A stretch of DNA of 56,974 bases, counting the filler, from Sphacelaria rigidula (lineage: Eukaryota): the NCBI GenBank assembly GCA_964200075.2. It is 6 parts of 6 records of this genome, joined end to end, with 100 filler letters (N's around TTAATTAATTAA, not from the genome) between each part and the next. Parts side by side here need not be neighbours in the genome. Positions count along the whole stretch, not along the records: positions 9,514 to 18,926 come from CAXNAA020008562.1; 5 more parts are not named here. One strand, 5' to 3'. A program made the position numbers and the translations under genes. The notes below the pieces were generated by a model. It saw only the letters and a program-made list of their open reading frames with translations. It made no database searches and was not told the DNA's origin. Shown here piece after piece: positions 5,415-50,760 of the stretch (the first letter of the stretch is position 1; every line of letters starts with the position of its first letter).

Positions 5415-5876
5415 TGTAAAACACGCCACTCACTGCGTAAGCTAGACAACCAGGTTACCGATTTTTTCGTTTGCGGTGACCGCGATGGCTGTCGAGCTAG
5501 ATCATAACGTGCGCGATGGAGAGCCTGAACTCCGCGCGAAGGGATGATCATACTACGCAGTGTTTTAATGGTGAGACACCCATGAGGCAGCGGACGACGT
5601 AGCTGCATCTGGAAGTGTCGATACCAGAAAACGAAGCAACTCATTCGAGGCTGCCATCCAAGTGGGAAATCTGCAGTACCCTCTCAGGCAACAATCTGAG
5701 CAGGATGCAGCTCACCTTGCATGCGACTCGCCGAACACATGACGGCGCTGCGCGCTTGGTGATTGCAAGCCTGGTCCGGCGAAAACCCGGCGTGTTGCGT
5801 CCCGGCTTTGTAGGGACGCGAGGTCAGTGGTCTTACAACAACGTCACGGAAGATCATGAGTACACCCCTCCCCCCG
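5415..5876. mobile_element. Dispersed repeat terminating in GATCATGAGTACACCCC
   Basis: Reverse-complement homolog at 10274-10740; translations in matching frames align (IPENEATHSRLPSK vs IPENEATHCRLPSK). The same terminal motif occurs at ~52907 and ~54819. Confidence 0.75.
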
Positions 5877-9413: not shown

Positions 9414-9513
9414 NNNNNNNNNNNNNNNNNNNNNNNNNNNNNNNNNNNNNNNNNNNNTTAATTAATTAANNNNNNNNNNNNNNNNNNNNNNNNNNNNNNN
9501 NNNNNNNNNNNNN
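9414..9513. other. Artificial contig linker (N44-TTAATTAATTAA-N44)
   Basis: Identical 100-bp spacer with stops in all six frames; repeated five times in the window. Confidence 0.97.
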
Positions 9514-10047
9514 TACTACTCTTTTGTTTCCGGCTTGCTTTTTTTGACCATTGACCACGCATCCCTTTCGAGACGGAGCTCGGGGGGGAGGCGGGGGGGG
9601 GAAGAACGGGAAGCTCGTCAAAACAAATTGAAACATCCTGGTGACAGCCAACAACACCAAAAACAAAAGGTCTAAATAAATCTCCGATCATTTCAACGAA
9701 TCGCTGTATTCCTGGGAGAACATCACTAGGCAAGATTGAGTAAAAAGACATACTCGTAGCGAATAAGAAACGAGTTGGACTAGAGAGGGGCGGTAGAACG
9801 CACCCGAACGTGGCGGGTGATGACTGCTCAGCAGCGACGTCCATTGCCATCTGCCACAGAGGCAGCAGGTACTACAGTGCTGCTTGATCAGCTCAGCAGC
9901 TACCCTTTACATGTTTAGAGCGATCAAAGGCATCACAGAACAATTGAAGCGGGGGAAGGAGGCCAGGCAACCCCACAGAATACCGAACGCAGGGGCTTGG
10001 GCTTTGGGGCATGTACCCGTGCCGCTCATGTTGGCATCTTCACTCAC

Positions 10048-13000
10048 TTGTACGATACGAACAAGTAGAGGACGGTGTTGACCAGCAGAAACCCCCACAC
10101 CACCAAAAACACTATCCACTCCAGCCCTCCTGTGCTCCCCTCCCGTTCCTCAAACATCCAGCTGCGATGGTGTTCGTTGTTTTTCACCAAAAATATCGGT
10201 AAGCACGCGAAAAAGGAGCCACCAGAAGATGAGCAAAGTTGGACAGGGTGGAAACACAACTGTGGGAAAACGGGGGGAGGGATGTATTCATGATCTTGCA
10301 AGTCTTGTCGCATGACCCCTGACCTCGCACCCCGAGAGAACGGAGCACGTCGGGTTTTCGACGAATATGGTTTGCAATCCATCACAAAGCGCGAAGTGCT
10401 GTGGTGTGTTCGGCGAGTCGCATGAAGAGTGAGCTGCATCCTGCGCAAGATTGTTCGGCCGGAAGCCAACTGATTATCTTGCATTTGGATGGCAGCCTAC
10501 AGTGAGTTGCTTCATTTTCTGGTATCGCCACTTCCAGAGACAGCCACGGCTTACACACTGCCTCATTGGTGTCTCGCCATTCGAACACGACGTGGTGTAA
10601 GCATCCCCTTTCGGCGAGATTGAGGTTCCTCCACTCCGCACAATGTGATCTAGCTCGACCACCATCATGGTTACCGCAATGAAAGGTATGCGCCAAAAAA
10701 AAAACGGCAACGTCGTCGCCTTGCTCACGCAATGAGTGACATCTTTTACAGCATTGCCAAGCGACGCCAACCTCATTACGGGGTACCAGGACGGGGGGCG
10801 TCGGTGGGGGGACAAAAGATATGAAGAGATCGACGAGAGCTCCACATCTCCCATTAGATCAGATTTTATGTGTGACGGTATTTGTTTAACGACTGACAGC
10901 ATGCGCTTCGAACAACTAACCGCACGTCTTCGACAATATCTACAGTACGTGTAAAAACACGCAGGAGCTGGTCACATTCAGTCGCCCGTTCCCGATACTG
11001 CTCCGACCACTAGTTCCGAGGCAAACTTCTGCAAAAAAAAGAAAGAAAAAGAAACAACGAGAGAACGCACTTGGAGTAGATGACGGATATTCCCTTCGCC
11101 AGCAAGACCGGCAGGAATACCACTCCCGAGTGGAGGTAAATGTTGAACACCACCGTGTAGAGAGCCATGCTGACTCAGGAGAAAATCAATGCGGCGCGGC
11201 GGATGGGGGGGGGGGGGGGGGAGAGAAGAAAGGAGAGCGTTGAATATTGTTGAAGAAATCCATCAATTGGACAAGAAGACCATATTCTCGTGCGAGGAGG
11301 GAAACGTCGACCCGCGTCTTCAACGGACGAGGCGCGAAGAACTCGACTTGACATTAAATCGGAACGACACCAAATACCAAATATCAAGTGGCCACACGAC
11401 CTTCTGTGTGCACGTGCACGTGCATGTCCATGGACGTGTCACGCTCAAGTGTGTGTGTGTGTTCTACTCCACTATCCGCATGTCTTCGGCTGTTGCACAG
11501 ACGAGCTCCGGCCCTGTCCTAGCACATTGTTCTGCACAAAAGAAGTGCGGTGGAAACGGAAAATCCTAATCCAACAGGTCGCCATTTCATCATATAATTC
11601 ACCTCCTGTTTTGACCTAACCGATTCGGATTCTTCTCCTCCGCCGCACCCTATCCGATTGAAATAACAATTTGCGAAAACAGAGCTTACCGAGACGCGCG
11701 CACATTAACACAGACACACACCATCCTTCATTTTTTTGATCGCGAAAACAGTATGAACTTACAATATGCGACCACGCTCCTGCTTGAAGTAGGACTCCCG
11801 TCCCGTCAGACTGGAAAGAACAGTCGTCGCCGACGCCGCATACCAACGCCTTGTTTTGCCGAGAGACGAGGGGAAAAAAGGGCGTGTTTACACGGGTTAA
11901 AAAAGACAACAAAACGCAAAAATATCACAGTACATCAGAGTAGGACGTAACGACCCTTGAGCAAAATCCCGCCGCACTCTGCACTCTGCACTCTGCACGC
12001 CTGTAAGGAACGGTCGCCTTCAACGTGAAAAGATGTCACAAGGACACAAAAACTGTACATTTTTCAACGAATAAAAAACGCCTCCAACAACACCAACAAC
12101 AGCAACACCAGCAACAGCAGAAAGTTGTGTGGAGCTGGATTAAAAAGCTGTGATCGGGGATCAAAAGGGGCATCCCGGGGAAATCTCAAGTTGGTGCTGT
12201 AGAGCTGAGGGCAGAGACTGTCAAGGCATTCATGGCGGTCCGCGGAGACGACAGAAGCACCAACAAAAAAAATTAAAGATGAAGGACGAGAAAATTCGCA
12301 TCACCTCCTCTGCGCGTAGAACTCCAGCAAGGATGGGGGCACGCACGTTACGGCATCGGCGACAGCGCACGAGCGCGCATCGTACGCCCTCTGGCGCAGC
12401 AGCACCAGCATCCCGTCGTCAGGTGATACGTCCAGCAAACTGGTACAAGAAGAAAGTGGCAGTAACACAGCTAATCCGTCAGTTCGGGCACGGAAAAGGG
12501 GAGCGGATCGAGCGAGGCGGGTACACAGGCGTAGAGTATTGTGGCACTACATACTGCTGTAAGTTACGACGGTAGACCTTCACCCCAACGGTGAAATCTC
12601 AGTCACATTCCACGCGTATTCTGCCCTGTCCCTTTCCGTACCTGCTGTCAAGACACGACATACAGTGTAGTGCAGACGAAAATGTGATTAGGTCTCAACC
12701 TGGAGAGGCTCGGAAAATCTCCTGCGGCGATTGTTGGCCGGGTGACCCAACACAAGTAAAAAAAATGTGAATCAACATGCAACATTCCGACCGCTGGCCG
12801 GTGTGGTGGTTATTCCTACAAAAGCTTCAAGAGGTTCATGACAGGGGAGGGTGACGTGAGAACCACTACATGAAAGGGATGAATCATCACCTGTCTTGTC
12901 ATGGAATCTTCTGTTCACATATGACCGTGTATTGTTCGTGAGACTTTTCCTGGAGTCCCCCCCCTCCTCTCCCCCCTCCCCCGTCGAGACTAGACAAAAC

Positions 13001-16000
13001 AAAAATCCGCGTCATATATCGCGGCAACGAAAACGCCGCCGAGTAGAAGCCCAAATGAATGAGGCACAGAACCCCCGAGGGTTGCTCGTGTCGAGCAAGC
13101 AAATTCCGGCCACGACATGGTGCAACCGACGAGTTCACGTTCGACCTCGGGAATAAAGATCAAAACAGACGTCCTCGCTTGCCCTCACTCTGACAAGAAT
13201 CAAACAGATCAATACGGGACATGTCTACACACATACAAGTACGTACACTACATAACTCACATCGTGGTGGCAAGACTACCCGCCGACTTCGAGAACATAT
13301 ACAGCGCCGGTGGCTGCGCCCCTTCTCCGATGGGAGGCATGGCACCCCTCCCATCCTCCACGAGGCAGGCGTACTTGAACATGACCGACGTGCCTCGGGC
13401 GGTAGTCTGTGCCGCATAGAACGACTCACCAACGCAGTCCCACACTTGCGCGTCTACGTTTGATTCAAAGATAAAAATTGGGGAAGCGGTAGCGACGGGG
13501 GGCGCGGGAAGGGGGTTGCTGGGAATGACATCAAACACAGAAAGGATAAAACAAAATAAATGAATGATGAAATAACGATGGCTCTGTTGTTCAAAATAAA
13601 AAAGGGACTTTCGTCGCTTCTTTTCGGGTTGTAGACGTCGCCAGCCCCCCCCACGTGAATCCGGCAAACGCCTCGACATTCCAGGATCTCGTACAGAGAT
13701 GCCTTCCTCCACCACTCGCTGCGTTCCTCGGTTTCCTGCTGCTCCTCCCTCGCCCTGTGGGTGCCCCCATCATCTTGCTGATCACCTCATTTCGTGATAG
13801 CACACAGGTACCTACTCAGCTACAAATTAGGCTGGTGTTTATATCACGAATATTTTCCTCGTCTCAACACCTCAAACAACAAAAGAAGGGAAAAAAACTC
13901 ACACTCTAGAGCTTGAGACGCTGACAGGAAAGAGCCGAATTGCGACATCGGTCGGACGGGGCAAGTGCATGCGGCCGTTTCCTTCTCCGACATGAGCAGG
14001 TGAAACATGCGCAGCACGTCGTCCAGCCCATTCTCCAGGTGCCCGGTATCGGCGTCCAGAATGTACACCGCCTCAGGTTCAGCCGCCTGACGGAACGAGA
14101 TCACCGCAGTGGATGATGATCAAGCGTTGTGTGTCGCAGAGGCCAGGCCGGCATATTAGTAACAGTACCAGTGTTGGATATACGCCGGCTTCAGAAGGGG
14201 GGGGGGGGGGAAATCTCCGCGATTGAGAACATCTGAGAGCCATTACCAGCAGAGAGAGGCGACAGCTGAAGATGACAATATTGTGTACACTGACTGTGCG
14301 TGCCAATTTCCGCCTGTAAAGACTCTGCATCATCACGTCCCGTGCCGTACGCATGTCGCGTGAAGGCAGTCAAGAATGGGAAAGACGAAACGAACACACG
14401 GGAATAGCGGTACACCGCGGAACACACGCCTACCCCTCCCACATACATCATCCATTTCGTTCCATTGTCATTGCATACGGACATGCCTCTCATGCACGTG
14501 CACTTCCACATCTCACCTCCCCCCGCGTGATCTTCGCCGGGAGAATTTCCTCGAAGAACATAACCAGACTGTTGCGCTTCCCCTGAGGAAGTGACTGACC
14601 CTGCCAATCAGAGCAACATCGTGCACAAAATATCCACAAATTACAGTCGGGTGGGTGAAATATCAGTCGAGATATTCCGCGTGGGGGAAAAGGGGCATCG
14701 GGAGAGGCGAGTCTCCATACCCAACTCTACGATGATCTCTAGTGCATTTTTCACGTTTCGCATCCCCCCCTCACCTCGTCGAGAACTGTACCCAGCTGAG
14801 TAAACAAGCTCGGGAAGGGTGCGTGTACGGCACCAATGGCGATATACGCACTCGGCGGACCTATTTTAAGAGGTAGTAGCCTGCAAGAAGCTCGGGTCCG
14901 ATTTCACGTTTCAAAACCTCACGGACAGCCGGCCGCACAATCGCCTGCCCTTCTGTCGTGTTCCAATGGTGGTTTGCTAGCCTTTGAGGTGATAATAAAA
15001 AGTTACACCACTCTGGACCACAACACAAAAACTAGTTTCGCTCATCAACGAGGGTTTTGGGGATGCGCGGTGGCGCTGCCGGATGCTGGACCCTGCACCC
15101 ACACCTGAACTGATTCAACATTGTGGAGCGGTTTCGTCTTTGACCACTTCCTGCCCCCGATTATTTCGTGTGTTATCCACGATGAGACGAGAGTGCTGGA
15201 GCCTCGCTTTGCACGTGAACACTATTCCAGACTTGCAACACCATGGGTAGCTTCGGCCAGATGAGAGTAAGCAAAATAGGCACTTGGAATCATTTCATCA
15301 ACGCGGTCAGAATTGTTAATTTTGGACAACGTTCCCATGAAGAACTCTTGAAGGTTTTGAGCTTTGCCAATTGCACGTCGTTACGTTGCATTTTCTTGGT
15401 GAAACAAAGCAATTTAAGGCTCGAGGTTTTTACACGTCCGACAGCTAACGAGCTGCCCACACTAAAACTTTACCCTTTGATGGTTCACTGATCCGGATCA
15501 TGAGATGGGTAATATGATCCCTTCTTCCATACTCGTTCCCAACAGCGCTGAACTCCAACCACGCGGAGTAGCGCAAAGGTAGCATACTGATCTTTCAGAC
15601 TCCGCTGTCACGCACTGTGTGATCTCGGTGAACGGATCTGACAGTTCCCTTCCAGTACTTATTTTTGGTGGCTCATGAGCTGCGCGACGTGTGCAAGTGT
15701 TGTAATTTGCACTAATCTTGATTTTTCAAAGTGTTTGAGCTCCAGGAGAAACATGTTTGGTGACCGACTTGCCGAGTCGTGGAGCTCCGTTGCGTCCTGT
15801 TCGCGCTAATGGAGTCTTCACCGTTGTGACATCGTGCGCCACGTACGAGTATTCATTATATAGTTGATAGCTATTTTTCACAACTTACCGAGACGCTGTT
15901 TTGGAATTGTTACGGGGACATGGAAAAGGGTTGGGAACAGGAAAGAGACAAAATATGTAACAGATGATGCGTAAGTTCTTCACCTTGACGTAAATATCGA

Positions 16001-16477
16001 ACGGAACCTGACTCTTGGGTATGACGCCCGACTCCCTCATGCACCCGAATTCTCCATAGGAATCTTGAGACTGTCCGGCCTCGCTTTTCTCCTCGCCTTT
16101 GCTACCGGATTCATTGACGGGCAGCAGCCGTCGCAGCTCCTGGTCACCACGAATAGAACCCCACGCCACAAAATCGACATACATGAACGAAAGAGTCGAC
16201 GGATTTGTGACTGTGCATCTTTTAATCGGGGGGTGGGAGGGAGGGGGGGGGAGGGGCTGCGGGGGAAATATTGTTGGTGTGCTGGTCTACGGAAGAACGA
16301 AGCAGTCCGTCTATTGTTGTTTTGCTCTCATCCCGTAACACACAAAAAATCCATCAAAGTGGCGAAGCGGGCGAAGAGTAACCGATCTTGTTGAGTCAAA
16401 AGAAACACCTGCCAACCTCGTCGCTCCCGAGCGAGGGCCGAGTACTGTAAAGGCGCGTGTGGTCGTCAACCACGAGG
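10048..16477 (-). CDS. Chitin-synthase-like processive GT2 glycosyltransferase, partial spliced gene (9 reconstructed exons; both ends incomplete)
   Basis: Exons on the minus strand: 16477-16417, 16139-15984, 14600-14517, 14086-13903, 13453-13261, 12439-12305, 11849-11763, 11169-11071, 10161-10048. All have AG/GT boundaries and matching phases; 1113 nt with no stops. Joined translation: LVVDDHTRLY...YGEFGCMRESGVIPKSQVPFDIYVK-GQSLPQGKRNSLVMFFEEIL...EAVYILDADTG...SASQALE-Y-AQVWDCVGESFYAAQTTARGTSVMFKYACL...TI-LLDVSPDDGMLVLLRQ...ADAVTCVPPSLLEFYAQR-R-RWYAAS, then two hydrophobic segments (MALYTVVFNIYLHSGVVFLPVLLA; WIVFLVVWGFLLVNTVLYLFVSY). The order DD, GKRxS, DADT, QxxEY, (E)D, QRRRW, TMs is the chitin synthase signature. 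Confidence 0.88.
10274..10740. mobile_element. Copy of the same repeat, inside an intron of the chitin-synthase-like gene
   Basis: Starts GGGGGGAGGGATGTATTCATGATC; homologous to the reverse complement of 5415-5876. Confidence 0.75.
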
Positions 16478-17440
16478 CTATTTCGAAGGAAATCTCCCGA
16501 TCAACCACAACGGCAGCGCAGCGAAAATTCAGGTTGTCAGGCTATACTACTATTACTATACTATTCAAGTACACTTTTCACGATACTACTGCTTTGGCCT
16601 TGCTACGTAGCAGAAAACAGGATGCTGATCCACGACGTACATGTGTACGCCAAGGATCGGATCGGATACCTGCAGACGTGCTTGGAAGCGGCAAACAGCA
16701 GAATAATTCAAGCTGCCGAGTCGTCGAACTTGACGTACATTAAGCAACACACGTACACGAAGGAGGACGTGGACGCGTTGATGGTATTTCCTTTCGTGAT
16801 AAAGGACAACGTCCACAACCTCATGCTCAAAAGGGACGAGCATCTTGTTGCGCCAACCGAAGTCGATGCCGAGTTTGACCTGCACAAAAGTTTTGGAGAG
16901 ACAACAGGACCCGTCCTCCGACATAGCACAGCTTGGCGATGGACCTGGCACTGATCCAGCCATCGTTGTGCTTCATAAACCGTGTTTCTGTATTCATGCT
17001 GCGGGCGTGGATGGACTGAAGGAAGGGGCGAGCGCTCAGCGATCGAATTATTGCAGCGATGCCCCTCAAATACAACAAAGGGAGAGGTTAAAATAGTTCA
17101 TGAGCGTTTGGGGGTACAGCTATCAGTGATGGTGGTGGATGGTGAGTGCAACTTCGCTATGCAGTGAAAACACTGCAGCACCACGTAAAGTAAAGAGGAA
17201 AATGTATAAATGTGGCGAAGTGTGTCGAGCACAGGGCGTCGCCATCTGCATTAATTTGAGGTACACTTCATCCAGGGGAATCTCCGAACCGATTCGATGT
17301 AGCATGTGGGTTGCAGGCTCAGGTCGTCTCCATTCCCCAACTTTTTTCACGTATCTTTTCCGCCGGTGGTTTTGTTCCTTGGGTTTTGTTTTCATGCTCA
17401 TCTCGCGCTCCCTGCTGTATTCGTAGCAGATCTGTTCTCA

Positions 17441-17649
17441 GGCCGTTTCTTCCGGTTCGTATTTTGTTTGGCTCGTATTTCCCACTTTCAGGACATTTGA
17501 CAAGGTTTTTGACCTCCTAACAGAGAAAATCGCTGCCACACGTCTTGGACACTTTGTATCACCCCACCGTTTGGGGGTCAAAAACCTTGTCATATGCCCC
17601 AAAAGTGGAAAATACGAGCCAAACAAAATACGAACCGGAAGAAACGGCC
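17441..17649. mobile_element. MITE with ~75-bp TIRs
   Basis: GGCCGTTTCTTCCGGTTCGTATTTTGTTTGGCTCGTATTT...GACAAGGTTTTTGACC / GGTCAAAAACCTTGTC...AAATACGAGCCAAACAAAATACGAACCGGAAGAAACGGCC. Confidence 0.88.
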
Positions 17650-17808
17650 CCATGCTCGACAATCGATCTCTAGGTAATTGTTCCCTTGTTTTTTTTTAGG
17701 CAGGGGGTCGTTTCTCGTCATTGGACACGAGTTCCTCGGCATCGCGAATGCAACGAGTCAACAGATTATACGTGAACTCCTCCATAATGCATACGAGATA
17801 CCATAGAT

Positions 17809-17940
17809 GCCGGTCGCCCCGGTGGCTCAGTTGGTAACCTCGCAAGCTTCCGACAGTTGGTAGTGGGTTCAAATCTCGGAGCGATCTGGGATTTCTCCTC
17901 GCACCATGTCCAACGGTGGGGAGCGACCATGTGATGGGTA
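17809..17940 (+). mobile_element. 5' part of the tRNA-derived SINE
   Basis: GCCGGTCGCCCCGGTGGCTCAGTTGG...GGGTTCAAATCTCGGAGCGATCTGGGATT; similarity stops where an inverted-repeat element (~17940-18147) begins. Confidence 0.8.
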
Positions 17941-18507
17941 TTCACGCCGCTTCTTTTGGATTGAAAAAAGTCTGAGAAAAGTCGTTTTGGTCACTCTTCA
18001 GAGACTTTTTTCAGAACGCGACCTGATACGGTCATTTTTCATTTCAAAAGCCTCTGGAAATTGGCCACAATTTGCAGACAGAGGGATCTTGCCAAATCTC
18101 TCCGCGAAAAGCCATCGATTCGCGTAGTCTTTTCTCAGTCTGCGAATTGTCGTTCCATCACACATTCCTCGCACACCGCACCCGTAATGGTACAGTCAGT
18201 GCAAAAGTAGTTGCCCATGTTTTATGTACAGTATAGTGCCAAAAGCATAGCTGCTATAGCACTCCGTGCATCCTTTTCATGACCGTAGAACCAGGGGCAG
18301 ACAGTGCAGTGTTTTATTGCCCGCAGCGTTGCTATCGTGAAATAGCACGATGACGCCCCTGCTGGCTGTGTTGATTATGCTCGTATCGTTTGATGCTCGT
18401 CGTGCCCGCCACCGATCGCGGACTCTGTAGTATTCTGCGTACTCAGACGGTTGCTACCGCACTACTGACTGTCACGTTATTTTTCTTGTGTGCGGAATGG
18501 CACAAAC

Positions 18508-18622
18508 CGTCTGCTGCACACATTGCGCCGCTTGCGACACGACTACTACTGTACCAAGCGGCGATCGGCTGAAGTAAAGGTTGATGCGCTCATCACTTCG
18601 ATCCCCACTATACCAGTAGCTA
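18508..18622 (-). CDS. Tentative upstream exon of the chitin-synthase-like gene
   Basis: cacag|TAGCTAC...CAGACG|gtttgt gives SYWYSGDRSDERINLYFSRSPLGTVVVVSQAAQCVQQT. A hydrophobic segment (LVVVIICILYLCHLR, ~18735-18790) lies further upstream in the same frame. This loosely resembles the post-TM 'W...ER...LF' segment before the catalytic domain of chitin synthases. The linking exon(s) to 16477 were not resolved. Confidence 0.4.
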
Positions 18623-18926
18623 CTGTGCATGTGCGTGTGTGCGTCTGTGTGTTTGTGTCTACGTGTGTGTTGCCATCCCATCCATGCTGTATCTTGACAG
18701 GATTTATCACGTGTTGGTTCACCACAGGCTCGCCGCAGGTGGCACAAGTACAAAATGCAAATGATGACCACTACTAGCGTAGCACGCAGGCTAGATGATG
18801 ACCTCGGGTGTACAAATCCCCAGGATTCTTTCAAGGATCGGACGATTGATGATTCGTCTGGAAATTACTTGGTTCAAGTATGATGAGTCGATTCGCGACG
18901 AATCAATCCCTAGGCTATATTTCAGC

Positions 18927-19026
18927 NNNNNNNNNNNNNNNNNNNNNNNNNNNNNNNNNNNNNNNNNNNNTTAATTAATTAANNNNNNNNNNNNNNNNNN
19001 NNNNNNNNNNNNNNNNNNNNNNNNNN
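18927..19026. other. Artificial contig linker
   Basis: N44-TTAATTAATTAA-N44. Confidence 0.97.
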
Positions 19027-28439: not shown

Positions 28440-28539
28440 NNNNNNNNNNNNNNNNNNNNNNNNNNNNNNNNNNNNNNNNNNNNTTAATTAATTAANNNNN
28501 NNNNNNNNNNNNNNNNNNNNNNNNNNNNNNNNNNNNNNN
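28440..28539. other. Artificial contig linker
   Basis: N44-TTAATTAATTAA-N44. Confidence 0.97.
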
Positions 28540-37951: not shown

Positions 37952-38051
37952 NNNNNNNNNNNNNNNNNNNNNNNNNNNNNNNNNNNNNNNNNNNNTTAAT
38001 TAATTAANNNNNNNNNNNNNNNNNNNNNNNNNNNNNNNNNNNNNNNNNNNN
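37952..38051. other. Artificial contig linker
   Basis: N44-TTAATTAATTAA-N44. Confidence 0.97.
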
Positions 38052-44452: not shown

Positions 44453-44815
44453 ACCGGTCGCTCCGGTGGCTTAGTTGGTAACCTCGACACCGTTTGACGG
44501 TTGAGTCGTGGGTTCGAATCTCGGGAGCGATCTGGGATTTTCTCTCGCACAATGCCCAACAATGGAGATCGACTATATCGTGGGAACGTGCAATCCGACT
44601 TGATGGTCGACGAGGGAAAGGGACTGCTGAACCGGTCTCGCGATGAAAAAAATATAAAGGCAAGCACAGCAGAAGGAATGTGGAGTACCACAACAAACAA
44701 AAAAGAAGAACTCCTGTGTTGGCCATCCTCCTGTGTGACCGCGGCTGGTACGCCCATATATATATACCGAAATGTGTAGACCGGCGTCCAGAATAGATGG
44801 GACAACAACAACACA
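44453..44815 (+). mobile_element. tRNA-derived SINE (~360 bp)
   Basis: Head CCGGTCGCTCCGGTGGCTTAGTTGG (A box) ... GGGTTCGAATC (B box), non-tRNA body, (ACA)n tail; homologs at 17809, 45908 (reverse) and 50354. Confidence 0.85.
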
Positions 44816-45549: not shown

Positions 45550-45908
45550 TGTTGTGTGTGTTGTGTTGTCATCCCATCTATTCTGGACGCCGGTCTACAC
45601 CTTTCGGTATATGTGGACGCATCAGCCGGGGTCACACAGGAGGAAGGTCAACACGGGAGTTTTTCAGTGTTTGTTTTAGTTCTCCACCTTCCTTCTGCGG
45701 TGCTTGCCTTTCTTTTTATCGCGAGAGGGGTTCAGCAGTCCCTTTCTCTTGTCGACCGTCAAGTCGACTTATGTGTACCCACGACATAGTCGCTCTCCAC
45801 TGCTGGGCATTGTGTAAGAAAAAATCCTAGATCGCTCCGAGATTTGAATCCACCACGCAACCGTCGGAAGGGTTCGAGGTTACCAACTGAGCCACCGGGG
45901 CGACCGGC
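45550..45908 (-). mobile_element. tRNA-derived SINE, full-length reverse copy
   Basis: Reverse complement reads GCCGGTCGCCCCGGTGGCTCAGTTGG...GGATTCAAATC...GTGTAGACCGGCGTCCAGAATAGATGGGATGACAACACAACAC. Confidence 0.85.
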
Positions 45909-47024
45909 ATAAGGTATGACGAAAAAATGTGAGTGAACATCCAGAGTGTAAAACAAATAAATGTAGAGTAAAATCAAGTAGACAGAGCCAAGTTAACCCT
46001 TTTGAAACCCTCCCCTCCTGTCCCCGGGCCAAACGCCTCATTATAAGAAGCCCTGACAAGGAGGAAAAGATGGAAGCAGAGAAGGCCGACGGCAATCAAT
46101 TCATAATGAAAGACCGAAGAAGAATCCCGTAGAATACGCGGCGGGTGCATAGGGATGCTACGGTAGAGGTGCACAAATATTTTCTGAGGCTAGAATTGTT
46201 AGGAGCCCTTCATCTCGTGCCAAACACGAGTTATGAAATATGTGAGAGTACGCCAGGATTACTATTCCAATATGCTAGGGATGACCGGAGTAAATTTGCA
46301 AACGGGGGTGCCCTGATCCATATTCTTGTGCATCTAGAATCTTTAGGGGCTCCTGAACCAGACAAGATTTCGCGCAAAAAGTGCACCCCTACCGTAGCAT
46401 TACTCTGCAGGAAAAATGTCCTCCCTGGAGAAGTCGGGTGAGGTTTATCCAATAATACCACGCAACGGATGAAGTGTCCCCAATTGTATCCATCGACAAT
46501 AATCAGCGAAAGCACTATGAAACATTCCTTTAAAAAAATAGCAGTGGGTTCCAGGATCTGGTACGGCAAATCGGTAAATAGGAAACCTTCTTTTAGTTTC
46601 ACTTGTCACTCGCACGGGTCTGAAAAATACGCATTCCGTGAATGTTGTTGCGTAAAAGCTGTGAACCATCAACCATATCTTGCTCAAAAACCGTCAATTG
46701 CAAATGATTAATTTTCGATTGTGAGTTCCAAAAGGGTTAATCGAATGGGGGAGTATAGTCCACTCTTCGATGCCATGCGTGTGGCGAAACCTTGAGAGTC
46801 TTTTCAGCTATTTCCAGCATGGAGCTCTGTCGAGCTCCTTCTTCAGCGCTCAGCCCTGAGCACACTGAGTGCTCCGAACGCTTCTATTCTCTAAAAATGC
46901 TAGTAAAAATGGACTATGACCGCCTGGCCGTGGAGACCTGGGTGCTGCCGCGCCCGAGCAATTCATCTGATTAACACTAGCCAGGTAGAGCCGAAGGTTG
47001 CGGGCCCAGAGATACTGTCTTTTT

Positions 47025-47463: not shown

Positions 47464-47563
47464 NNNNNNNNNNNNNNNNNNNNNNNNNNNNNNNNNNNNN
47501 NNNNNNNTTAATTAATTAANNNNNNNNNNNNNNNNNNNNNNNNNNNNNNNNNNNNNNNNNNNN
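47464..47563. other. Artificial contig linker
   Basis: N44-TTAATTAATTAA-N44. Confidence 0.97.
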
Positions 47564-50353: not shown

Positions 50354-50760
50354 ACCGGTCGCCCCGACGGCTCAGCCAGTAACCCCGAAACCTTCTGAGG
50401 GTTGGGTTGTGGGTTCGAATTTCGGTGAAGTCACACCATCCGGGATTTTATCTCCCACCATGCCCAATAGTGGAGGGTAACCATGCTGTGGGTACGAGTA
50501 CGAAAACATCGATTTCTCGATCGACCGAGGGAAAAGAACCGCTGAACTCCTCTCGCGAGTGACAATTATTAAGCCAAGCGCCGTCACAATAACGCGCCGG
50601 GCAGCAAAGTCTCAGTACCGTCCTTGCACTTGTACGAAACACAACGACGCAATTTGGTTCTATGTCATGTTGTGTGTTCTCAACTCATCTGTTCTGGACG
50701 CCAGTCTACATATTTCGGTGTATGTGAGCACATCAGCCGGGATCACACAAGAGCAAAGGC
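50354..50760 (+). mobile_element. Diverged SINE copy, with an inverted tail fragment at ~50665-50750
   Basis: CCGGTCGCCCCGACGGCTCAG...GGGTTCGAATTTCGG; the downstream TTCTGGACGCCAGTCTACATATTTCGGT matches the reverse strand of the SINE tail. Confidence 0.7.

Follow-up and report, generated by a model that had tools for sequence, protein, structure and literature searches.

The closest described relatives of the gene reported here, which lies on the minus strand of a 56,974-base stretch of Sphacelaria rigidula DNA (hereafter the window), are the division-2/metazoan-type chitin synthases (Pfam family PF03142), with structures of P. sojae Chs1 (PsChs1), C. albicans Chs2 (CaChs2) and S. cerevisiae Chs1. 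The roles of the chitin-synthase motifs are summarized in PMC12653383. The Sphacelaria gene and its brown-alga orthologues share with these enzymes the fold, a gap-free alignment from motif 7 to QRRRW, and the GKRxS, DxD, QxxEY and QRRRW motifs; NE and WGTR are found in the orthologues. They differ in that the catalytic EDR becomes P-x-(D/E) and the gate-lock Pro becomes Arg, in an insert of approximately 15-20 residues (LVEDGR..GEGA.PP) after the gate-lock strand, and in the very long disordered tail of the orthologues. In this conserved gene with a chitin-synthase fold, it is exactly the residues contacting the reacting sugars that have been exchanged, and the replacements have since been retained. 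The window holds part of a real, spliced nuclear brown-alga gene, which encodes a lineage-specific offshoot of the chitin-synthase branch within glycosyltransferase family 2 (GT2). It is found in three brown-alga orders with its catalytic cave rebuilt and conserved, and reflects neither decay nor a mis-read exon.

Class I hyaluronan and cellulose synthases also share the GT-A domain, the interfacial helices, the Q(Q/R)xRW motif and a membrane channel, but they are weaker structural matches. In both of these groups the catalytic motif retains its acidic pair (GDDR, TED). In the literature searched, the sole chitin synthase reported from the genome of a brown alga is the 'ESV class' enzyme of Phaeovirus EsV-1 (PMC5122149); the account given there presents the copy integrated in Ectocarpus as viral, transcriptionally silent and probably non-functional. 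The present gene is set apart from that copy by description, having at least eight exons that are seen as spliced contigs.

The altered catalytic motif is located at positions 12415-12426, whose reverse complement (TCA CCT GAC GAC) encodes Ser-Pro-Asp-Asp (SPDD) where chitin synthases carry Gly-Glu-Asp-Arg (GEDR). The surrounding peptide is LLDVSPDDGMLVLLRQ, within the stop-to-stop frame 12301-12546(-). The gate-lock strand reads TARGTSVMFK at 13403-13374(-), where chitin synthases carry CSPGCFSLFR. Three methods agree on the register: MAFFT alignment with canonical chitin synthases, comparison of a profile, which includes two canonical sequences, with solved chitin synthases, and hhalign of seven brown-alga-only sequences against four canonical chitin synthases (probability 98.9%, E = 2.9e-17, 348 columns). 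Ser falls on Gly, Pro on the donor-positioning Glu, the first Asp on the general-base Asp and the second Asp on Arg, and the Arg of TARG falls on the gate-lock Pro. Written out, LLD-V-S-P-D-D-G-MLVLL aligns with (Y/F)D-Q-G-E-D-R-W-LCTLL, and TT-A-R-G-T-S-V-M-F-K with LC-S-P-G-C-F-S-L-F-R. From the catalytic motif to QRRRW, the MAFFT alignment contains no gaps against the division-2/metazoan-type sequences P0028 and P0040. The initial annotation, made from the nucleotide sequence, had reported SPDD in place of GEDR and TARGTSVMFK in place of the Pro-Gly (PG) acceptor-site motif, and both observations are borne out by translation and alignment, with Arg at the Pro position. It also placed SPDD about 33 residues before an intact QRRRW. 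The motif is indeed present, at a distance of 34 residues, and is intact only once a 455-nucleotide intron has been removed: QRRRW occurs in no single reading frame of the window, and is assembled by splicing from QRR at exon end 12305 and RW at exon start 11849 (spanning 12312..11843).

The altered residues are shared by brown-alga orthologues. Those with organism names come from Ectocarpus sp. CCAP 1310/34, E. fasciculatus, Ectocarpus sp. 12, Ascophyllum nodosum (Fucales) and Hapterophycus canaliculatus (motif 6 only), and the deposited Sphacelaria protein, P0001, shares 61-63% identity with the named orthologues across its 256 residues. Motif 7 was counted in 12 brown-alga-type sequences, including single-exon fragments and six entries without an organism name. 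Its first position is Ser in 11/12 and Cys in 1/12, and the second, the Glu site, is Pro in all 12. The third, which holds the canonical base, is Asp in Sphacelaria only (1/12), the others having Ser (five), Asn (five) or Cys (one). At the fourth position (base +1) an acid is present in 12/12, as Glu in 10 and Asp in two. The motif 6 gate-lock reads Arg-Gly in every brown-alga sequence (12/12). Each brown-alga sequence that covers them retains DAD(T/S)G, QxL(E/D)x, GKR(N/S)S and QRRRW, and the longer or full-length orthologues likewise retain CCCNE and EWGTR(D/E)V. The initial annotation described the Asp as apparently retained and its neighbors as remodeled; this holds for Sphacelaria and fails for the family, in which the position is Ser, Asn or Cys in 11/12. 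Judged from this alignment, the retained Asp of SPDD is a peculiarity of Sphacelaria and not a family trait.

Constraint was gauged by comparing core and tail identity in two distant full-length orthologues, P0003 and P0005. Their cores are 70% identical with 17 gap columns, compared with 44% identity in aligned columns and 604 gap columns in the tails. Because the core is conserved relative to the tail and the motif changes are shared by orthologues, the altered sites are, on this comparative evidence, under constraint, and decay is refuted. The initial annotation had allowed that orthologues might be unconstrained at these sites; their conservation in three orders lends decay no support. After approximately residue 640, P0003, P0005, P0006 and P0007 carry ~900-1200 extra low-complexity C-terminal residues, in which a unit of the form RR(P)..G.(T)LAGIRAAWG(T/S)S(M/L)GGSQDD(I/M).CP.P recurs three to four times. 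The corresponding Sphacelaria tail lies off the contig.

The gene occupies the second part of the window (9514-18926), and its spliced product matches the NCBI entry P0001 ('unnamed protein product, partial [Sphacelaria rigidula]'), which was found by a one-exon search. Of the eight runs listed, none is recorded as RNA, and X5-X8 are of DNA type. Transcript-type evidence comes from the other four (X1-X4), all of one study, which hold about one sixth of the region's sampled words; contig depth in these runs is not usable as an expression level. Each of the four runs provides one 5.3-6.1 kb contig that skips seven GT..AG introns and shows 0 exon differences from the window, with joints at 10161/11071, 11169/11763, 11849/12305, 12439/13261, 13453/13903, 14086/14517 and 14600/15984. 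Three cuts were shifted by +1 (for example, 11848/12304 to 11849/12305), after which all splice sites are AG/GT. The joined exons contain no stop and are identical to P0001 at 255/255 residues. The sole mismatch is the first residue of P0001, which arises because that model misses the upstream exon at 15984-~16251. Seven successive canonical intron removals are the signature of a spliced mRNA. The exons, and the intron that divides QRRRW, are as follows.

15984..16251 (-), upstream coding exon, equivalent to approximately Ectocarpus residues 80-147, ending ...PFDIYVK and absent from the P0001 model
14517..14600 (-), GKRNS exon, with GKRNS at 14582-14568 as the counterpart of motif 3 (KASKL); joints 14600/15984 and 14086/14517, AG/GT sites
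13903..14086 (-), DxD exon, with LDADTG at 14059-14042 and the start of SQALEY (motif 5); spliced joints, profile E = 4.4e-22
13261..13453 (-), gate-lock exon, with TARGTSVMFK at 13403-13374; joints 13453/13903 and 12439/13261
12305..12439 (-), catalytic-motif exon carrying LLDVSPDDGMLVLLRQR, with SPDD at 12426-12415, ending ...EFYAQRR and then a GT donor; profile E = 8.8e-19
11850..12304 (-), intron of 455 nucleotides, GT..AG, dividing QRR from RW; joint in 4/4 runs
11763..11849 (-), exon opening (R)RWYAASATTVLSSLTGRESYFKQERGRI, which completes QRRRW; spliced joints, tblastn
11071..11169 (-), exon ...ALYTVVFNIYLHSGVVFLPVLLAKGI..., in which the membrane part begins; joints 11169/11763 and 10161/11071, profile E = 1.7e-7
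10062..10161 (-), exon LEWIVFLVVWGFLLVNTVLYL, a transmembrane helix; joint 10161/11071, tblastn 10208-10062, 3' limit approximate

The 5' limit of the upstream exon is approximate (16251-16256); the exon has 89 open codons, and a run contig has its loose end at 16251. It is supported by tblastn (16217-15984), by the profile (E = 2.3e-7), and by the 14600/15984 joint together with contig pieces at 15983-16140 in four runs. The P0001 model starts one residue inside the intron (Gln in place of the spliced Lys-Gly junction; 14600-14603) and lacks the 15984-16251 exon. The 5' truncation of this deposited annotation has a cause other than the contig end. At the other end of the gene, reading through past the end of exon 10062..10161 reaches a stop after 39 codons, and a profile search finds no match to Ectocarpus-profile positions 453-640 anywhere in the window. 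The N-terminal (CCCNE) exon or exons and the C-terminal exons past ~10062, including the expected WGTR, lie outside the window because both ends of the 9413-nucleotide contig truncate the gene. The break that the 455-nucleotide intron makes after QRR is seen also in the fragments P0018, P0019, P0021, P0030 and P0042, and P0016 reads across it.

A hidden exon carrying a canonical EDR was also considered, since the initial annotation had named an additional or alternative exon as a way in which SPDD could prove misleading. All three minus-strand frames of the contig (9514-18926) are free of ED[RFYTWL], and a profile of the Ectocarpus orthologues finds a single window stretch for the catalytic region (12304-12546, E = 8.8e-19; next best E = 11). 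With the SPDD exon spliced directly to its neighbors in 4/4 runs, such an exon is rejected for this contig and the SPDD finding stands.

As a yardstick for chitin synthases we used PF03142 (Chitin_synth_2) and the nine-motif definition of Chen et al. 2022. By sequence family the protein scores poorly: P0001 matches Glyco_trans_2_3 with 25.4 bits and Chitin_synth_2 with 14.3 bits (E = 0.017), both under the 27-bit threshold, and no Pfam family reaches E<=0.01 with either of the full-length orthologues, P0003 and P0005. When 1.84 billion representative proteins were scanned, just 43 matched at E<=0.001. Other evidence, namely the hhalign comparison given above and structure prediction, nevertheless groups the protein with the chitin synthases. 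The AlphaFold model of the E. fasciculatus orthologue (P0004) has a predicted local distance difference test score (pLDDT) of 65.1 and a predicted template-modeling score (pTM) of 0.71, with most of the glycosyltransferase core at pLDDT 80-93. In a Foldseek search with this model, ranks 1-20 (19 listed rows) are all chitin synthases, with E-values of 4.8e-15 to 1.8e-12 and template-modeling scores (TMq) of 0.51-0.60; these chitin synthases are from C. albicans, P. sojae and S. cerevisiae. Hyaluronan synthases follow at lower ranks (E ~1e-10, TMq 0.33-0.37), as do cellulose synthases (E ~1e-6). The protein has a chitin-synthase fold, as predicted from a model of the orthologue rather than of the window's partial protein.

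Most of the nine motifs are recognizable. For motifs 1 and 2 the orthologues carry CCCNE and LD(P/S)R; the motif 2 region of the window reads ...FMYVDF..., and the CCCNE exon is off the contig. Motifs 3 and 4 are present as GKRNS (14582-14568) and LDADTG (14059-14042), aligned to PsChs1 and CaChs2. Motif 5 is present as SQALEY, split by an intron (13918..13452), where the orthologues have QxL(E/D)(Y/F/Q). Motif 6 carries Arg in place of the gate-lock Pro. Motif 7 lacks its Glu, which is replaced by Pro, and retains the general-base Asp in Sphacelaria only. Motif 8, QRRRW, is complete after splicing. For motif 9, EWGTR(D/E)V occurs in all six orthologues that reach it (P0003-P0007; P0004-P0006, P0049, P0050), and the window's own exon is off the contig. 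As to the third acid of the processive GT2 beta-glycan synthase signature (D, DxD, ED/TED, Q(Q/R)xRW), expected where the helix after the gate-lock strand begins, the brown-alga sequences have an invariant acid that is displaced by one residue toward the C-terminus relative to all canonical sequences in the alignments.

The closest relatives outside the brown-alga group are P0010, P0011, P0014, P0017, P0022, P0025 and P0032, which are known by sequence alone and are 23-34% identical to P0001. A language-model look-up of P0010 describes it as 'chitin-synthase-like' only. With hhalign, the brown-alga sequences match the seven with a probability of 100% and E = 1e-50; the 471 aligned columns reach from the N-terminal NE motif as far as WGTR. 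ED is kept in six of the seven (as S/A/V/C/N-E-D-F/Y/Q-G), P0025 having QD. None of the eight sequences available for the gate-lock, namely the seven and the fragment P0026, has Pro there; the position is Val, Ile or Met. This ED-retaining clade shares with the brown-alga proteins the Pro-less gate-lock strands of TA.GMSVM(Y/F)(R/K)Y type and GQRRRWY. It differs in having ED, with an aromatic residue or Gln next and Gly after that, in having Val, Ile or Met rather than Arg at the gate-lock, and in its length of 417-702 residues, without the long tail. As judged from this comparison, loss of the PG proline predates the brown algae. P0030, a fragment of 52 residues with 50-54% identity to the motif exon, has LLDNSEDTG, in which ED is intact, and stops after QRR as the brown-alga exon fragments do; its source may be a sister lineage in which the ancestral state survives. 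A metagenome scan added four distant GT2 loci (L001-L004, 27-44% identity) that share FYAQRRRW. L001 has the canonical MGEDRWLCTLL and L002 the bacterial-type TEDYDL, so that the Pro-x-acid variant is absent from both, and the alignments of L003 and L004 stop short of the motif.

The simplest history, which we infer from these sequences without a tree, would have three steps. An ED-bearing ancestor would already have been without the gate-lock Pro. On the brown-alga stem, Glu would then have changed to Pro, a new acid would have appeared at +1, and Val or Ile would have changed to Arg. The old canonical Asp would have been lost later. Sphacelaria SPDD, with both acids present, looks like an intermediate of such a base shift.

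The explanation we prefer, tentatively and with confidence just short of even, is that the protein is an active GT2. It would still bind a nucleotide sugar and still form a membrane channel, transfer would be catalyzed by a relocated or otherwise non-canonical base, and the product would be a non-chitin glycan, or a chitin-like chain with a different acceptor geometry, rather than ordinary chitin. Consistent with activity, conservation extends to the membrane part and to all motifs predicted to bind donor, metal or acceptor, an invariant acid stands beside the lost base, and the replacement of that base looks stepwise. If active, the enzyme would be a processive GT2 whose general base has shifted by one residue and which lacks a donor-positioning Glu, and it would point to an unrecognized glycan.

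Several observations weigh against this explanation. The conserved +1 acid interchanges between Asp and Glu, which is unusual for a geometry-critical base, and S-P-x-(D/E) fits the rule for a helix N-terminal capping box. In the P0004 model, S303 is outside the helix, which spans 304-314 and starts at Pro. The P0001 model (pLDDT 73.3, pTM 0.74) likewise places S160 outside a helix spanning 161-170. Because both models start the helix at Pro with Ser outside, the +1 acid may be structural rather than catalytic. These models are themselves of moderate quality (pLDDT 65.1 and 73.3), with values near the motif of about 56-80. Nor do the 12 sequences amount to independent samples, as several are from Ectocarpus species and one species contributed both P0007 and P0050. 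The RNA status of X1-X4 is an inferred label, and the case for splicing rests on the intron-skipping contigs instead. A further objection comes from PsChs1 (PMC9556331), as its mutants are reported there. The EDR Asp is the general base; activity is abolished in D496A and strongly reduced in D496N. The role of the Glu is donor positioning, and E495A, with ~95% loss of activity, was the mutant used to trap uridine diphosphate N-acetylglucosamine (UDP-GlcNAc). Pro454 acts as the channel gate and stacks against the second sugar, and activity is abolished in P454A. Measured against these mutants, each of the brown-alga substitutions should cripple a chitin synthase. By this yardstick the brown-alga protein is not a standard chitin synthase, and its sequence suggests that it probably does not make ordinary chitin.

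The same mutants (D496N, E495A and P454A; PMC9556331) can be taken as evidence that activity has been lost altogether. The protein would then be a non-catalytic pseudo-glycosyltransferase that keeps binding and the channel, has lost the base and the donor-positioning Glu, and works as a partner in sensing, scaffolding, translocation or regulation, for which the very long, disordered C-terminal tail of the orthologues might be used. We regard this as a real possibility, if somewhat improbable. The canonical base is Ser, Asn or Cys in 11/12 sequences and the Glu is Pro in 12/12, which favors this reading. The Asp/Glu swaps occur at the third helix residue in both models, a position at which the role of an acid can be structural alone, and the ~900-1200 extra low-complexity residues of the orthologues, with their GIRAAWG..SQDD repeats, would also suit a partner protein. 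However, every other motif that contacts donor or acceptor is kept across three orders, which is more typical of an active enzyme, and an invariant acid lies right beside the lost base. Furthermore, the ED-retaining sister clade lacks the gate-lock Pro (0/8), so that loss of this Pro alone need not mean inactivity. If inactive, the protein would be a conserved pseudo-synthase with a channel. The initial annotation had offered altered specificity and a pseudo-enzyme side by side; its interpretation is partly supported, and both readings stay live.

An ordinary chitin or chito-oligosaccharide synthase with drifted motifs, converting UDP-GlcNAc to beta-1,4-GlcNAc chains, seems unlikely. We know of no brown alga that makes chitin. 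The fold and the presence of seven of the nine chitin-synthase motifs are what such an enzyme would show, Sphacelaria keeps Asp at the base position, and the language-model look-up places the sister-clade P0010 beside chitin-synthase clusters (score 0.96), which serves as a lead only. Against these stand the replacement, in 12/12 sequences, of both the donor-positioning Glu by Pro and the Pro that stacks on the second GlcNAc by Arg, together with the absence of the base in 11/12. The literature searched describes no host chitin synthase from a brown alga, only the silent viral copy in Ectocarpus (as portrayed in PMC5122149), and the text and three supplements of a 2024 survey of brown-alga wall genes, as far as these were covered, make no mention of chitin (PMC11468063).

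A more specific proposal is that a chitin-synthase chassis has been re-tooled for an anionic sugar, with a uronic-acid donor or chain, as in a mannuronan (alginate backbone) or glucuronan-type synthase. We consider this very unlikely. The Glu to Pro change would remove a negative charge at the donor site, and Pro to Arg would add a positive charge at the channel mouth. To our knowledge, the synthases of several brown-alga wall polymers, above all that of the alginate backbone, are unassigned. Alg8, the bacterial mannuronan (alginate) synthase, is a GT2 polymerase of an anionic polymer that brown algae also make, and the analogy is one of function only. Brown-alga GT2 genes are described as not homologous to Alg8, and the mannuronan synthase of brown algae as an unidentified GT2 without a validated candidate, in the account given by PMC11468063; a 2021 review names an actinobacterial-type GT2 as the candidate (PMC8307928).

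A decaying pseudogene, or a wrong exon model that hides a canonical EDR exon, is hardly credible: the database model is partial, with the CCCNE and WGTR exons outside the window, and Pfam scores are sub-threshold, but contig ends account for the missing exons, the frame is open over seven spliced exons, spliced contigs occur in 4/4 runs, and the same altered motifs recur in Ectocarpus, Ascophyllum and further fragments, so that decay is rejected. An insert of phaeovirus EsV-1 type was rejected as well, with seven GT..AG introns removed in contigs of four runs. Two scans found no relatives in viral contigs, which is weak evidence; the EsV-1 sequence itself was outside the comparison.

No account of a chitin-synthase-like family encoded by brown algae themselves turned up in the full-text literature and supplements searched. 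The gene models are already public as unnamed proteins, and what is new is the recognition of the conserved variant, not the sequence.

The window consists of six parts (9413, 9413, 9413, 9412, 9412 and 9411 nucleotides), and no feature is readable across the joins; genes close to a join are cut short by the assembly rather than biologically. The joins are occupied by the following linkers.

9414..9513, no strand, linker of N44 + TTAATTAATTAA + N44 at a join of parts, consisting of N runs around TTAATTAATTAA, which translates as LIN and a stop
18927-19026, 28440-28539, 37952-38051 and 47464-47563, further linkers of the same N44-TTAATTAATTAA-N44 make

Within the contig of the gene, two segments, 10142-10769 (in an intron) and 17678-17991 (upstream of the gene), have a summed contig depth of ~5,000-54,000 in the four runs, compared with ~20-250 on the exons. 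Copies of these segments that are 77-85% identical are found in other contigs, at 5471-5876, 45776-45910, 44454-44573 and 50355-50425. The high-depth segments probably represent dispersed repeats, in the form of transposon fragments, either transcribed themselves or contained in many transcripts. A third segment, 9514-9827, has a similar depth and no second copy within the window. Finally, 17460-17630 is an imperfect palindrome, with a 75% match to its own reverse complement over 175 columns. Rfam returns only sub-threshold microRNA-like matches on this contig, on both strands of the palindrome (MIR2630, 36 bits vs 144; mir-223, 29.5 vs 57), and the segment is most likely an inverted-repeat element rather than a curated microRNA.

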